Source: Escherichia phage ES17
Sequence record: NC_070984.1
Reading direction: 5' to 3' (one strand)
DNA length: 64,000 nt
Of the stretch, positions 8,700-57,480 are shown piece by piece (within the stretch, counting starts at the first letter, position 1; each line of letters starts with the position of its first letter). Below the pieces are notes generated by a model. That model saw nothing but the letters and a program-made list of their open reading frames with translations, did not search any database and was not told where the DNA came from. Made by a program: the position numbers and the translations under genes.

Positions 8700-9212
8700 G
8701 TGACTGTTAGCCCTGCGTCTTTAGCAAGCCTAGAGACAGGGGCTACTCGGCAGTTCACTGCAAGCGCGGAGAAAAGTGATGGTTCTACCGAAACAACTGG
8801 CTTTACTTGGTCAGTGACAGGAGGTGGTTCTATCACTCAGTCGGGTTTGTATACTGCCCCGAGTGCGTCTCAATCCACTGATGTATCCATTACTGCAACT
8901 TTAGAAGGTGTTTCTGGTACAGCAACCATTTCTGAAATTGTTGCTCCTACTCCTACTATTGTGAGTCGTGGGCCAATTACAGGTAAAGTAGGTGGTACTA
9001 CCACTAACTTCAACACCATGTTTACTGTAACTAATTCTATTGCTGATGATTACACACTTGTTGTAACTCCCGCAGAAGCTGGTACAATAAGCGCTAATAA
9101 TTCGTTAAAATTAGATGCTGCTGCAAGTGGCGAAGTTACTGTTCAAGCAAGTTTGACAGCTGACCCGTCCATCAATGCAACATGCACTTTTACTGGTGTA
9201 ACACCTGCTTAA
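8700..9212 (+). CDS. Ig-like (Big_2-type) domain ORF, probably expressed as C-terminal extension of the capsid protein
   Basis: GTG-initiated ORF without SD; -1 frame relative to capsid gene, open from 8610; Big_2-like pattern TGATRQFTASAEKSDGSTETTGFTWSVTGGGSITQSGLYTAPSASQSTDVSITATLEGVSGTATI. Confidence 0.5.
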   Translation: MTVSPASLASLETGATRQFTASAEKSDGSTETTGFTWSVTGGGSITQSGLYTAPSASQSTDVSITATLEGVSGTATISEIVAPTPTIVSRGPITGKVGGTTTNFNTMFTVTNSIADDYTLVVTPAEAGTISANNSLKLDAAASGEVTVQASLTADPSINATCTFTGVTPA

Positions 9213-9250: not shown

Positions 9251-9270
9251 AAGACCTATACAAGCTAGTG

Positions 9271-9284
9271 TGTAATGTATATTC
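9271..9284 (+). promoter_or_regulatory. Phage promoter-like motif TGTAATGTATATTC
   Basis: TAATGTATA at 9273..9281, about 40 nt upstream of ATG 9315; same motif recurs at 24475, 34394 (+) and 34202, 45843 (- strand). Confidence 0.5.
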
Positions 9285-9314
9285 TTTGTCTACATACAAC
9301 AAGGAGGACAACCT

Positions 9315-13000: not shown

Positions 13001-13142
13001 TGCTTCCGGTTCAGTGAACCTGCGCCTAAGTACAGCCGGTACAGGCGGAGTAGTCCTACGCCTCGCTGATTACTTCGTAGCGGAGTTCACTACTCAGGCA
13101 GAGGCTATGCGCTTCGCTAATAGTAGACGTGCCCTGCGTTAA
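10077..13142 (+). CDS. Tail fibre / tailspike protein
   Basis: 1021 aa; N-terminal coiled coil; repeated tail-fibre motif ISQGGTGATTASAARTKLGL and ITKGGTGATSSENARLAL; central/C-terminal region with beta-helix-like pattern (NDIKHSGDFPTLQAAVNASLPKNDLIVSPGEYSEAITIG). Confidence 0.65.
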   Translation: MIVYNNQAPKNVNNVGQFGATEGTIGAYKSAAEYAADSKYWALLSQTKYSSVEEILAEVERLYAQGHLLEEDIKQLKSDFESQEQVLLGLIQSTGTAIDNTNAATELSKEATQNVLAQLDIISNMTVQTTLLPPGSLATGSYDNATGVFAFGIPEGKPGRDGTDGTIGDIGSVPVGTPVVDDYGFYVDKDDGGLYRADMSDIANLIPSVRSVSINGGAEQTGSVVFDSVSTFNGRKGAVVPATGDYTAAQVGAFSVTNNLSEITDTSAAITNIGLAEHGIGSPTLTKVKAMDWQTFNFVNGGNYSVLMSNITNAPAEINYPANYGLYLEVIGVVTGGGEVRVVPGTNNNNYYSVFSVSWTGGVGSRVFTVREELSSARPVTISQGGTGATTASAARTKLGLGLVSTESIVPITKGGTGATSSENARLALVAAKSGDNSDITSMTNKVTFTQSPVIPDAVDDNDAVALRQLHTSEADLLARLKSSNAGEGASLITFENGNSVESLSSKDGAKNIGSGERSLLVRNNDIKHSGDFPTLQAAVNASLPKNDLIVSPGEYSEAITIGSTQLKGVGGATVLKAPSNFTDTIQVKASTPHWQFRHSGGFAIDGSGTTGAVGISFDPTDQYAGRHNFSDVYIHNINKAIQKPSGNIGNTWKGIGVQGCDWGYWAQSASEMHLGSDTLQNMHFDGISTYCVYLNATTGEAPGTFGGGVGGWWIKDSIMEASGGGGIYLKNKDGDCPTAPCGVSNVWMEAIATTPAINVDGVSQKPRVLKLIDTSIFFAEYTYLNNVELQNSNLVTYGCRVDNSDGHMDISVDANSSFVADQLYLNGSSGKDVMVRSVAAQTGKIGQSWTPNMSMRGYLPEGYIYRVPGNKLVVKPFDGGTAEFSGTASSTGSLQPQGQLSQSCMYFEIPGAAEYELTGAAFQITSGNWYVWGISTELVQGTPTNFRIGGDINVGEVFTKGGQWVSTFGVAQASASGSVNLRLSTAGTGGVVLRLADYFVAEFTTQAEAMRFANSRRALR

Positions 13143-13168
13143 GAGTAATGACATTACTATAAGCAAAA

Positions 13169-13616: not shown

Positions 13617-14108
13617 ATGGATAACGCCGCATTGCCACCTGTACAATTAAACTTAAGCCCAGCTGGAATGGAATTCATTATGAAGCATGAAGGTATGAGA
13701 ACCAAGGCTTATAAAGATTCCGCAGGCATCTGGACGATATGTGTAGGGGCTACGCGCGATATGAATGGTTATCCGGTTAGACAAGGATTAACGTATTCTA
13801 TAGAGGATTGTCTAGCTCTGCTAGATAGAGACACACAAGACTCTGTTCGTGCTACTCAGAAGAACATAAAAGTTCCTTTACTAGTTCATGAGTTTGATGC
13901 ACTCACTTCTTTCAATTTTAATGTTGGAAGTGGTGCTTTGAGCACATCTAAGTTAAGGAAGGTTATCAATGGAGATGTTAAAGGGGATATTTATTCCGAA
14001 TTTCTTCGTTGGGATAAGATAACGGTCAAGGGAGTGAAGCAGAGAAGTCAGGGTCTTCATAACAGAAGGGTTGCAGAAGCTGATCTTTATACCGAAGGTA
14101 AATATTAA
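13617..14108 (+). CDS. Lysozyme (GH24 / T4-lysozyme-like muramidase)
   Basis: 163 aa; catalytic-triad context KHEGMRTKAYKDSAGIWTICVGATRD (Glu, Asp, Thr) as in T4 lysozyme; SD AAGGAGG. Confidence 0.85.
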   Translation: MDNAALPPVQLNLSPAGMEFIMKHEGMRTKAYKDSAGIWTICVGATRDMNGYPVRQGLTYSIEDCLALLDRDTQDSVRATQKNIKVPLLVHEFDALTSFNFNVGSGALSTSKLRKVINGDVKGDIYSEFLRWDKITVKGVKQRSQGLHNRRVAEADLYTEGKY

Positions 14109-34405: not shown

Positions 34406-34704
34406 GTTATAGCTGATAAAGTTATTGCACGGGACTGACGACGATAAGGCGCAGACGACAATCTCTCATAAGTTTGTAAGAAATTGAGAGACTACCGGAA
34501 GGGCAGGAGCCACCTGCGAGATAAAAATAGAGAATTAAGGAATCCTTGATTTAGGTTGTAGGGACTCCTAGGGACTTTGATTCTCTATTTAAAAGAATAT
34601 TAATTACTTATTACCTAAATAATTAACTAACTTACTTAAACCAAATTCAATAAGAATAGATAAAAAGATTATTCCTAAGAAAGCTAAAAAGTAAAGGATA
34701 TAAG

Positions 34705-54266: not shown

Positions 54267-56297
54267 TTAACCTCTATTCAATGAACATTTAGGAGAATTA
54301 CAATAAACTTGATTCATAGAACCAAGCGTACAACTTTCAGCATCGCGCCACGGAATCTGCTTAAAACACTCTGAGCAGTATCCGAGGGTTGACCACATTG
54401 CTTTGGTGAAGTCAGTGCTTCGGTTTCCGTCGAAGCTGACGACAGTTTTGCGGAGAGCTGTTCGTGATTCAGGAAACACACCTGCTTTCTCAGCAGGTTC
54501 CTCCTTTTTTGGCTTAGTTGAGATTGCAAAAATACTGTTGCTACGTTTCTCAACATAAGCATCAACAACATCCTCCAGAGTGATGCCTGTCTGTTTCGCT
54601 GAGGAAGGTAATACAGTCATACGACCGATCATATCTTCAGTTACACGTAAAGCGAATTCAGGACGACGGGCGTTTGTTGTATCTGTTGCTTTAATCCAGA
54701 CATAACCATCTTTGATCGTAGCATTAGACACTTTCTTCTTTACTTCTACAGCGCAGACTTTACAGATATCTTCACCACGAAGACGACTAAGTTCATCATC
54801 GAACTCATTCTCTGTTTTAACTTCACCGCAGATTTCACAAACACCAATAGGAGTTTCCTCCTCTTCTTCCTCTTTAGGTTTAGTCAAACCTTCCAGACAT
54901 TCAGGATGCCAATAGCACTGATATGCGAAGACTGCTTTAGGTGCATCCTTCCAATCAATGTGCTTATCACAACCACCACAATCACCATGAGAGTGCGCTT
55001 CCCAGAATTTACGAGTGATAGTAACACCATTCTTGTTGACGAAACTATCATTCATATCAAAAGGGATATCATCATCGAAGTCAGCAGTAGTTGACTCAGG
55101 CTCCTTTTTCTCCAGAGATGGGTCAACAAAACGACCTGCTGTGATCACTAAACGGACCATAGCATTGACTTCGGAGATGCAGGATACTGTCCCACGGTAA
55201 ACAATTTTAGGGTCTTTCAGGGCATCCTGATAAGCCTTAATGTCTACGTTATGAACATCACCTTCGATATACTCTTGAGATTTCTCATCGTAGATATAAC
55301 CAATCATCTTACCACGAGAAGGAACAGCACCGGCAGTTGCATAAGGAACAAACTCATGCGGAGTGATTTCCACAGTCATATCGCGGCGAATATCAATGTT
55401 TCGATCGCTTGCGATTTTGTTTTGACTTACCACTGCGTTTCTTCGACGAACGTCTGCCGCTGTCACACCCGGCTTCGTGTCGTAAGGATTGCTTGTACTG
55501 CTTTTTGAGGAACTTTGATAGTTGCTTTGGCTGTAATTGTTCGAGTAGTAATTGCCCCAACGATTGACTACCGTAAAAACCGGAAGCTCGTGGGCGACCT
55601 CTTCAACCAGTGTCATGCTGTTATTAGACATGTCAAAGATATACTCTGTACCAACTTTACACTCAAAATGCTCATCAATACGGTTCTTGTGAGACTTCGA
55701 ACGCTTCAGAATCCACATCAGCATATCTTCTTCAGAAGCGCCAAACCAATCTCTGTTACAACGTGCGAGATGGAAAGGACGCTCTTCGTTACGAATGATA
55801 TGAAGGCGGTTATCAGAAGCATCATGCCAGATTAAGGTGAAAGCACCATCCAGCTTTTGAATAGTCTCTGCTGCACCAATAGTGTTAATAGAGTGGCAGA
55901 TGTTCTCACTATCTACCTCGAAGTTTTTACTGTCAGGTAACAGGTCTTGGTCCATCAAGGTTCCATTATGAACCAGAGTGATGTTACCATGTTGGAAAGG
56001 ATGGGCGTTCTTGGCGTTAACTGCACCTTTCGTTGCATGACGGCTGTGACCAACAATCCATGAAGGTGCTACAGTGTAAGCTGTTTCACCAGTGGTGTGC
56101 TTCTTGTACTCATCTTGTAGGATGAATGCGAAAGAAGGAAGAGCTTCTTTATAAGTGAAGACTTCCTTAGTACTTTTACGCTGACCAAAGATACCGGAGG
56201 AATGTTGTCCTCGGAATACTCCAGCATAAAAGAGTTGGTTAAATACGTCTAAATCAGTGCTTGACAGATTACCGCCAGCTAATACGATGCCACAAAT
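54267..56297 (-). CDS. Class-II (Ntn) glutamine amidotransferase domain protein with Cys-rich zinc-ribbon C-terminal region; probable ATT start codon
   Basis: Reading frame is open from stop at 56301..56303; N-terminus (ATT)CGIVLAGG...FRGQHSSGIFGQRK matches Ntn GATase N-terminal Cys nucleophile; SD AGGTGG 7 nt upstream of ATT at 56295..56297; no ATG/GTG/TTG in frame before 55958; three CxxC clusters in C-terminal half. Confidence 0.6.
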   Translation of the reverse strand: MCGIVLAGGNLSSTDLDVFNQLFYAGVFRGQHSSGIFGQRKSTKEVFTYKEALPSFAFILQDEYKKHTTGETAYTVAPSWIVGHSRHATKGAVNAKNAHPFQHGNITLVHNGTLMDQDLLPDSKNFEVDSENICHSINTIGAAETIQKLDGAFTLIWHDASDNRLHIIRNEERPFHLARCNRDWFGASEEDMLMWILKRSKSHKNRIDEHFECKVGTEYIFDMSNNSMTLVEEVAHELPVFTVVNRWGNYYSNNYSQSNYQSSSKSSTSNPYDTKPGVTAADVRRRNAVVSQNKIASDRNIDIRRDMTVEITPHEFVPYATAGAVPSRGKMIGYIYDEKSQEYIEGDVHNVDIKAYQDALKDPKIVYRGTVSCISEVNAMVRLVITAGRFVDPSLEKKEPESTTADFDDDIPFDMNDSFVNKNGVTITRKFWEAHSHGDCGGCDKHIDWKDAPKAVFAYQCYWHPECLEGLTKPKEEEEEETPIGVCEICGEVKTENEFDDELSRLRGEDICKVCAVEVKKKVSNATIKDGYVWIKATDTTNARRPEFALRVTEDMIGRMTVLPSSAKQTGITLEDVVDAYVEKRSNSIFAISTKPKKEEPAEKAGVFPESRTALRKTVVSFDGNRSTDFTKAMWSTLGYCSECFKQIPWRDAESCTLGSMNQVYCNSPKCSLNRG

Positions 56298-56376
56298 TTT
56301 CTAATCCACCTGAAGGGTAAACCCTTTCATCTAATTAACCTTTAAATTGTGCCCCTTTATCAGAGGCACCCATTGA

Positions 56377-57480
56377 TTACAGCGCTTGCTCTAACTGATT
56401 TTCCAGATGGTCTGGAATGTACCCTGTGATATTGCTATCACTGTGACCTGACTCACGTAGTAAGTCAAAAATAGCACGGATACGCTGTTCTGGAGCGTGT
56501 CTTACTTGAGATAGGTCTGCTGTACGAAGCATAACCAAAATCTCTTGGTACAAGTTGTTAGCGTTCCCTCGGACATACCCAAGGAAGCCATAGAAGTCTG
56601 ACATAAGACGTAAGTCAACAAGAGCCTCTCCGTTGGAGTTGGTTCGACGTAAACGAATACGACCAGACTGTTCTACTTCATGAGAACGGCAATACAAAAC
56701 ATCACGGGCCATACAATATCCTGAATGCAAATCAGATTCATCCAGATTGTAATCCAGAGGAAGGTAAGGAAGCATTGGGGCAAATCGTACAGTATTTAAG
56801 TGCTCAATAAACTGATCATTGCTCATATCTGCGTTATCTAAAGCCAGCTTCTTCAACATCAAGAAGCGGTTAACCAGATTGAGAAGTTGACCACGTTTCC
56901 ACTTAGGCTCACTGATACGGAACTCAATTGAACCGTATTGGGCAAGTGGCAGAAGGTTCAGAGATGTATATTTATCCCATGAACGAACCAGACGGTTGAA
57001 GAATTCTTCACCATCGTAGTTAAATGCGTCAGAGGCATTCATTACCTGTGCTTGTACCACTGCAAACGCAGGGCAGAAATTGCTACGGTAACGATGGTAG
57101 CCTGAACACTTGAACAGCATCTTTTCATAGAAGGTCCAAGCAAGGATGGTCTTCTTGAGGATATTACTATCAGCATCCCTCATATCCATATGAACGTGAG
57201 TAGAGCAACGCCAAGTCCCCTCGGCGTGCGATTCAGCTACTGCTTCACTCAGGTTGTTGATAGCGTCTAACAACTCCTGTCCGTTGTAAGGTCGTGAACA
57301 TACCATTTCACAACCGTTACGCAGGGAACCATCCTCTGTGCAATCCCACATATCTGCTTCGATATGTTCAGAACCTTCGAGTTCAAGTTCAATACCGACA
57401 CCGCACTGAAGTGCAATTGAACTATGCGCCTCAGTTAAACGACCTTCTCGATATCCAAAAGTTTGCGCTACAGTTGTCAT
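56377..57480 (-). CDS. Glutamine-synthetase-fold amidoligase (COOH-NH2 ligase family)
   Basis: 367 aa; LQCGVGIELELEG (ExE metal-binding strand), DGSLRNGCEMV, STHVHMD (HxH). Confidence 0.6.
   Translation of the reverse strand: MTTVAQTFGYREGRLTEAHSSIALQCGVGIELELEGSEHIEADMWDCTEDGSLRNGCEMVCSRPYNGQELLDAINNLSEAVAESHAEGTWRCSTHVHMDMRDADSNILKKTILAWTFYEKMLFKCSGYHRYRSNFCPAFAVVQAQVMNASDAFNYDGEEFFNRLVRSWDKYTSLNLLPLAQYGSIEFRISEPKWKRGQLLNLVNRFLMLKKLALDNADMSNDQFIEHLNTVRFAPMLPYLPLDYNLDESDLHSGYCMARDVLYCRSHEVEQSGRIRLRRTNSNGEALVDLRLMSDFYGFLGYVRGNANNLYQEILVMLRTADLSQVRHAPEQRIRAIFDLLRESGHSDSNITGYIPDHLENQLEQAL

Follow-up and report, generated by a model that had tools for sequence, protein, structure and literature searches.

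The 64,000-nucleotide stretch of the genome of Escherichia phage ES17 analyzed here (NC_070984.1; referred to as the window) carries a gene for a glutamine amidotransferase (GATase), the translation of which most likely starts at an ATT codon placed directly before the codon for the catalytic cysteine (Cys1). This region of the window is 100% identical to the Kuravirus genomes EK5, Ec3-ASingh, and FS2B, and 97.5% identical to phiEco32 across 801 nucleotides. In phiEco32 the orthologue of the gene is gp83, and the sequence comparisons described below indicate that the gene product is most likely a class-II, N-terminal nucleophile (Ntn) GATase. The gene, its start site, and the leader in front of it consist of the following features:

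54267..56297, minus strand: glutamine amidotransferase gene, 676 codons from ATT plus a stop codon, identified by Pfam and PHROG matches and by the same 2031-nucleotide coding sequence (CDS) in EU330206/NC_010324
56295..56297, minus strand: ATT, proposed initiation codon, the same in 95 Gordonclarkvirinae records and in Aeromonas phage BUCT695
56292..56294, minus strand: TGT, codon of the catalytic Cys1, directly 3' of ATT, an invariant column aligned to Cys1 of GlmS, GFAT1, and PurF
56306..56311, minus strand: Shine-Dalgarno (SD) sequence AGGTGG, 8 nucleotides (ATTAGAAA) upstream of ATT; AGGCGG in BUCT695
56313..56326, minus strand: hairpin AAGGG-TTTA-CCCTT of the centroid fold, ending 1 nucleotide before the SD; a hairpin scan puts its 3' end at -16
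56301..56330, minus strand: open reading frame (ORF) of 9 codons, referred to as the mini-ORF, encoding MKGFTLQVD, with the hairpin and the SD inside it and a stop codon 3 nucleotides before ATT
56339..56343, minus strand: AAAGG, weak SD-like element 8 nucleotides upstream of the mini-ORF ATG
56290..56346, minus strand: invariant leader block TTTAAAGGTTAATTAGATGAAAGGGTTTACCCTTCAGGTGGATTAGAAAATTTGTGG, 57 nucleotides from TTTAAAGG to TGTGG
55956..55958, minus strand: in-frame TTG at which several GenBank records begin the gene; this start would remove the Ntn domain

The minus strand reads ATG (56330-56328) AAA GGG TTT ACC CTT CAG GTG GAT TAG (56303-56301) AAA ATT (56297-56295) TGT (56294-56292) GGC ATC GTA. 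The first-pass annotation, which was made from the letters alone, described the frame as TAG AAA ATT TGT GGC ATC GTA, exactly as it stands in the sequence. It placed the SD 7 nucleotides upstream of ATT; the AGGTGG element is present (56311-56306), but the gap is 8 nucleotides. It also correctly named TTG at 55958 as the first canonical in-frame start 3' of TAG (ORF 54267..55958, 563 residues); however, the distance of 112 codons that it gave is counted from the Cys codon and amounts to 113 codons from ATT. This otherwise accurate reading of the start region overlooked that the TAG terminates the in-frame mini-ORF, which has an ATG of its own. Two out-of-frame start codons overlap ATT-TGT on the same strand: TTG at 56295-93, which opens an 8-codon ORF, and GTG at 56293-91, which opens a 4-codon ORF.

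Codons 1-112 of the gene are under strong purifying selection and are clearly coding. The ratio of nonsynonymous to synonymous substitution rates (dN/dS) across these codons is 0.07-0.09 when this phage is compared to four other genus-level relatives, SU7, KBNP1711, ECBP2, and Bas87, and the synonymous sites are near saturation (proportion of synonymous differences, pS, about 0.7). The other two frames across the same codons contain 3 and 11 stops and have ratios above 1. A single-sequence search of the PDB returned nothing, and a profile search was needed to find the structural relatives of the protein. In the profile A1, built from eight phage homologues, the Cys at position 1 is aligned to Cys1 of E. 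coli GlmS (1xff), human GFAT1 (7ndl), and PurF (1ecb), with E values of about 1e-7. The invariant columns of A1 are C1, G2, R28, G29, N110, G111, and D128, and its RG and hnG columns match RG and HNG of GFAT1. Because the N-terminal domain is coding and its Cys1 is homologous to that of the known enzymes, translation must begin at or before the Cys codon. A start at TTG is disfavored because the protein would then lose a domain on which selection is strong. With ATT as the initiator, the catalytic Cys immediately follows the initiating residue, and the active-site columns are conserved. ATT is in frame at the homologous start position, no canonical alternative keeps the protein intact, the SD is at a functional spacing, and AUU is retained among orthologues.

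The class-II GATase domain forms the N-terminal ~200 residues of the gp83 orthologue. The 675-residue protein matches Pfam GATase_6 with 55 bits (cut-off 27), GATase_7 with 27.4 bits (cut-off 25), and PHROG 4736 with an E value of 6e-202; the PHROG profile opens with M-C, and Cys1 is at its position 2. The PDB profile matches are confined to the N-terminal domain, and the Pfam scan of the whole protein identified GATase domains only, with no sugar-isomerase (SIS), phosphoribosyltransferase, or asparagine-synthetase domain. The C-terminal ~430 residues (window 54267-55600, minus strand) are without any Pfam domain; an acidic stretch, KPKEEEEEE, and several CxxC pairs are located there. The public name "L-glutamine-D-fructose-6-phosphate aminotransferase", which implies a GlmS-type enzyme, is unsupported, since SIS domains are absent in the Pfam scan.

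The start codons of homologues were read from a survey of IMG/VR that was blind to the start codon, because the loci were found via internal peptide motifs. The survey returned 72 loci, of which 54 have a tblastn match beginning at Cys1. The codon before Cys1 in these 54 loci is ATG in 44 cases, ATT in seven (five Kuravirus-group contigs, L056, and L058), GTG in one, and TTG in one. Two further loci with a tblastn match that begins two codons late have ATG-TGT on inspection by hand, and ATT precedes Cys1 also in L053 and L081, which belong to the 18 loci matching only downstream of Cys1. In none of the surveyed homologues does a canonical start further upstream extend the N-terminus; start codon and Cys codon are adjacent throughout. 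The closest ATG-type relatives of the Kuravirus protein (L012, L013, and L028-L030) share 60-65% protein identity with it. Conservation of the ATT-TGT arrangement, which the first-pass annotation proposed as a check, extends to 95 related records, and most of the surveyed homologues read ATG-TGT at this position.

The 2031-nucleotide CDS in the phiEco32 records EU330206 (2008) and RefSeq NC_010324 begins at this ATT, and the record of the BASEL phage Bas87 has the same start. ATT has thus been in public annotation since 2008, so it is not new as an annotation. Other records differ. That of EK5 has the TTG start together with two small spurious ORFs, and the SU10 GenBank record contains the TTG-start form. 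The records of SU7 and BUCT695 begin not at TTG but at a non-conserved ATG further downstream. The start in KBNP1711 is later still, and the GlmS-like product name sits on its amidoligase. A literature search on ATT or AUU starts in phages and on this gene cluster found nothing on this start codon.

ATT and ATC starts recur in at least seven lineages of this gene family. ATT is present in four further independent lineages (L053, L056, L058, and L081), and ATC precedes Cys1 in Pseudomonas phage O4 (L143). A hairpin and GGAGGA precede the ATC of O4, and its GenBank CDS starts 36 codons late. The GATase N-terminus CGLVGVAG is common to O4 and two close relatives of it, and follows ATC in O4, TTG in PA11 (L153), and ATG in PPAT (L154). 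A metagenome scan for GGATTANAAAATTTGTGGNAT identified at least 13 further, very divergent GATase genes with GGAGGATTA[G/T/C]AAA-ATT-TGT. ATT and ATC types are scattered among ATG types in a neighbour-joining tree. Among IMG/VR and metagenome contigs there are near-identical N-termini in front of which the whole upstream module is swapped together with the start codon: L081 has ATT and L082 has ATG, and L101 has ATT and L073 has ATG. These pairs suggest an exchange of 5' modules by recombination right at the start codon. The first-pass annotation overlooked both the prior annotation and this family-wide recurrence; however, its proposal of an ATT-initiated (M)CGIVLAGG is borne out by the dN/dS ratios, the homology of Cys1, the starts of homologues, the spacing of the SD, and the annotation of phiEco32.

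According to association statistics that ignore phylogeny, the leaders with ATT or ATC differ from those with ATG in two respects (19 versus 45 unique leaders): their SD is stronger, with a mean of -9.1 kcal/mol versus -7.0 kcal/mol (p = 8e-4), and a perfect hairpin of at least 5 base pairs that ends at -18 to -11, abutting the SD, is present in 13 of the 19 ATT/ATC leaders versus 3 of the 45 ATG leaders (Fisher p = 8e-7). When the start-codon-blind surveys alone are considered, the hairpin occurs in 6 of 7 ATT/ATC leaders versus 3 of 45 ATG leaders (p = 3e-5), and the seventh blind case, L056, does have a hairpin, which was shut out by the strict G-U limit of the scan. Control windows further upstream showed no enrichment of hairpins. 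The stems of the SD-adjacent hairpins differ in sequence among lineages. Because the stem sequences are unrelated, a structural role in initiation is favored over a sequence-specific site.

The 57-nucleotide leader is 100% identical in 95 of 95 Gordonclarkvirinae records, from Kuravirus, Suseptimavirus, and Nieuwekanaalvirus, and in several metagenome contigs. It is 91% identical in Aeromonas phage BUCT695, although the GATase domain of that phage is only 54% identical in protein. Variation restarts directly on either side of the block. Comparison of the 64-kb window with the complete genomes of SU7 and KBNP1711 showed that the leader is, with 56 nucleotides, the longest perfectly conserved block outside ORFs of at least 70 residues; the conserved block at 9267-9300, which includes a match to the phi32_gp36 promoter consensus (TAATGTATA), has 34 nucleotides. 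Other blocks perfectly conserved among Kuravirus, SU7, and KBNP1711 are located at 8765-8842, 13785-13852, and 34561-34596: a 78-nucleotide block in a 170-residue ORF after the major capsid gene, a 68-nucleotide block in a 163-residue ORF, and a 36-nucleotide block outside any long ORF.

The elements of the leader follow each other in the order weak SD AAAGG, mini-ORF ATG, 5-base-pair hairpin, SD AGGUGG, UAG, AAA, and AUU. BUCT695 contains the same mini-ORF, which encodes MKGLTLQAD; its changes inside the block are U to A in the hairpin loop and U to C in the SD, and the hairpin stem is untouched. Since these changes alter the peptide, the constraint acts on the nucleotides and not on the peptide of the mini-ORF. 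About half of the family members, ATG and ATT types alike, have an upstream ORF that stops within ~7 nucleotides of the start. In Kuravirus, BUCT695, L081, and L115 this ORF has 8-9 codons, begins at or just before the hairpin, and spans both the hairpin and the SD. The sequence arrangement supports a putative role of the mini-ORF in coupling. The ribosome-binding site (RBS) of the Kuravirus mini-ORF, AAAGGTTAAT-TAG-ATG, resembles the RBS and ATG of the ATG-type L082, AAAGGTTAAT-CAA-ATG. It is possible that the leader represents an old ATG start followed by a 33-nucleotide in-frame insert with the hairpin, SD, TAG, and ATT.

The fold of the whole leader is not exceptional (z = -1.4). A hairpin in the minimum-free-energy fold that would sequester the SD (GGUUUACC/GGUGGAUU) was rejected: it is not conserved, and both BUCT695 substitutions break adjacent pairs without compensation. 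A search of Rfam with permissive E values over 56100-56500 gave chance-level matches only and no glutamine riboswitch. A second copy of the leader is present neither in the 64-kb window nor in 5,426 E. coli genomes, and in IMG/VR the leader was found only in five Gordonclarkvirinae contigs. The window shows no enrichment of the motif TTTAAAKGT. A search of the coding strand for a sigma-70 promoter was negative. The plus strand has a sigma-70-like match, TTGACA-16-TACGAT (10/12), at 56261-56288, within the first GATase codons; an antisense RNA transcribed from it across the leader was considered and rejected, since the -35 element is not conserved in SU7. In L012, L013, and BUCT695 (L005), AAATGTAAA or AAATGTAAT is present directly 5' of the RBS, ~20-40 nucleotides upstream of the GATase start. 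These sequences are near the phi32_gp36 promoter consensus tAATGTAtA; Kuravirus reads TAAAGGTTA there (window 56338-56346), a degenerate form.

The amidotransferase gene belongs to a leftward-transcribed cluster together with an amidoligase gene, a phiEco32-type COOH-NH2 ligase gene, and an ATP-grasp gene, the RimK-like Pfam matches of which are under the curated cut-offs. Two features of the cluster are located directly upstream of the leader:

56377..57480, minus strand: amidoligase gene (Pfam Amidoligase_2), the stop codon of which is 79 nucleotides before ATT
56349..56369, minus strand: predicted terminator-like hairpin between the amidoligase stop codon and the leader, identified from the fold

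The stem of the terminator-like hairpin varies among genera; however, its arms remain complementary in the alignment (GGGTGCC...GGGGCAC versus GGGCGC...GGGCGC). The hairpin is without a clear U-tract.

It is likely, on the strength of the sequence comparisons, that translation starts at ATT 56297-56295 and gives (M)CGIVLAGG. A joint explanation of the start site, combining the AUU start, its direction by the SD, re-initiation from the mini-ORF, and the aid of the hairpin, is likely as well. Initiation most likely takes place at AUU with the initiator tRNA and is directed by the SD AGGUGG, and the removal of the initiator Met would expose the catalytic Cys1. The hairpin abutting the strong SD probably helps the ribosome to use the weak codon. 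By analogy with infC, the weak start codon would lower the output of the gene and should make it sensitive to the proofreading by initiation factor 3 (IF3). Ribosomes that end at UAG probably re-initiate at AUU, as at the thrS-infC junction, which would add to de novo initiation directed by the SD. A regulatory role of the AUU start, as suggested in the first-pass annotation, is plausible. It may tentatively be proposed that the combination of a hairpin, a strong SD, an A-rich spacer of 7-8 nucleotides, and AUU or AUC before UGY(Cys) is a cassette dedicated to the translational control of phage Ntn amidotransferase genes, which is maintained or exchanged across very divergent phages. The Kuravirus form of the cassette would be contained inside the 57-nucleotide leader, with the mini-ORF feeding terminating ribosomes onto AUU, and could make the dose of a potentially harmful glutaminase sensitive to IF3 or dependent on the stage of infection.

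Several observations weigh against the joint explanation of the start site. As a start codon AUU is poor (6-8 times weaker than AUG; PMC3592434), and the overlapping out-of-frame UUG (56295-93) and GUG (56293-91) could compete with it. Starts close to a termination site occur just as often in ATG types, which means that coupling is no peculiarity of ATT. Both BUCT695 substitutions in the mini-ORF are non-synonymous, and one of them weakens the SD to AGGCGG. The invariance of 57 nucleotides exceeds what an SD and a small hairpin should need. Because the search pattern behind the 13 metagenomic genes itself contained ATT, these cases give no ATT frequency. Proteomics of SU10 detected the protein (PMC4281155); however, the listed expected mass of 63.8 kDa is that of the TTG-start entry, so the detection is silent on the N-terminus.

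The invariance of the leader is an argument for a non-translational role, in which the block would be conserved mainly as a DNA-level signal, as a site of processing, or as the operator of a regulator that binds RNA or DNA, with the RBS overlapping it. The 57 nucleotides are unchanged in 95 records despite the saturation of neighboring synonymous sites, they form the longest conserved non-ORF block in the window, exceeding the block at the match to the gp36 promoter consensus, and relatives carry AAATGTAAA, which resembles the phi32_gp36 promoter consensus, just upstream. By contrast, the coding strand has no sigma-70-like promoter, the leader matches no Rfam family, it occurs neither a second time in the window nor in E. 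coli genomes, Kuravirus has a degenerate form of the gp36-like motif, and the SD-adjacent hairpins of other lineages have unrelated stems. Such a role is compatible with initiation at ATT and could account for the invariance; as the main reason for the conservation it is rather unlikely.

Initiation at the mini-ORF ATG (56330) followed by readthrough of UAG is improbable. It would produce a 12-residue propeptide (MKGFTLQVD-X-KI) that would have to be cut off autocatalytically to expose Cys1. Ntn enzymes can self-process, and an 11-residue propeptide is removed from B. subtilis PurF. In favor of this, the mini-ORF shares the reading frame of the GATase and is equipped with an ATG and a weak SD, and the ATG, frame, and TAG are all kept in BUCT695. 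However, the phage has no suppressor tRNA: the 64-kb window is without tRNA genes, and the rest of the genome encodes only tRNA-Arg(TCT). This single phage tRNA is located at 13070-13145 in EK5 (L148), outside the window. Furthermore, no surveyed homologue has an extension or a propeptide, the TAG is replaced by TAT or TAC in other ATT-type leaders, which also lack a conserved ATG upstream, and the BUCT695 changes in the mini-ORF are both non-synonymous. Frameshifting was rejected, as both the +1 and -1 frames after GAT-TAG reach stops within 12 codons when read by hand.

A product that begins at TTG (55958) or another internal codon, with the upstream 113 codons being an untranslated relic of an Ntn domain, is very improbable. 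TTG is the first canonical in-frame start and was chosen by gene callers in EK5, SU10, and others; however, codons 1-112 have the low dN/dS, saturated synonymous sites, and absence of stops of a coding sequence, the catalytic residues are invariant, and records of other genera (SU7 and BUCT695) use another, non-conserved ATG. There is likewise very little probability that ribosomes start at the mini-ORF ATG, take off from AAA (56327-25), hop over the hairpin and SD, and land on AAA (56300-298) to produce MKICGIV..., which would then be processed. The layout of the leader loosely resembles the bypass system of T4 gene 60: the AAA codons match, the hairpin begins inside the take-off codon, and an SD-like element is located 5 nucleotides before the landing codon. 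However, the take-off codon is followed by GGG, which is neither a stop nor a rare codon, the nascent chain of only two residues could provide no peptide signal, the repeated codon is absent from other ATT-type leaders, and the product would still require an unprecedented removal of a tripeptide. A sequencing or assembly error that hides a true ATG has nothing in its favor beyond the rarity of ATT starts and is of negligible probability, given that ATT is found in 95 independently sequenced phage records, BUCT695, and IMG/VR and metagenome contigs.

In these common coliphages, many public records truncate or split the gene and lose its catalytic domain (among them EK5, the SU10 GenBank record, SU7, KBNP1711, BUCT695, and O4), and gene callers restricted to ATG, GTG, and TTG will repeat the truncation in every phage that has ATT or ATC at this position. 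A family in which AUU and AUC starts recur, together with a strong SD and mostly an abutting hairpin, lends itself to testing how bacteria-type ribosomes use near-cognate starts, and it can show why a weak start would be selected. With its 57 nucleotides, the invariant block is a compact candidate for a regulatory element, in phages whose molecular biology has received little study (PMC11990801). The infC-like mini-ORF arrangement, the full invariance of the leader, the repeated use of ATT and ATC, and the association with an SD-abutting hairpin appear not to have been described before; they are moderately interesting for the biology of translation initiation and useful in practice for phage annotation.

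In B. subtilis PurF and glutamate synthase, the residues ahead of Cys1 are removed after translation. These enzymes would be analogues of the Kuravirus GATase only if UAG were read through; unlike them, none of the surveyed phage homologues is extended ahead of Cys1, and the genome provides no suppressor tRNA. The ATG-type homologues of 7-11, GAP52, Proteus and Cronobacter phages, LUZ24, and Bjorn are like Kuravirus in the gene, the position of Cys1, and the upstream amidoligase, and their RBS is often similar (GAGGATTATAAN). Unlike Kuravirus, they have ATG, a weaker SD, and usually no hairpin abutting it. The E. coli thrS-infC junction has the same stop-N3-AUU layout, with UAA-GGU-AUU in place of the Kuravirus UAG-AAA-AUU, and there re-initiation and de novo SD-dependent initiation contribute about equally (Osterman et al., PMC3592434). 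The product of infC is IF3 itself, whereas the Kuravirus gene encodes a metabolic enzyme of the phage, for which an autoregulatory loop is not obvious. The frame upstream of infC is a full gene; by contrast, its counterpart in Kuravirus is a mini-ORF of 9 codons combined with a hairpin that abuts the SD.

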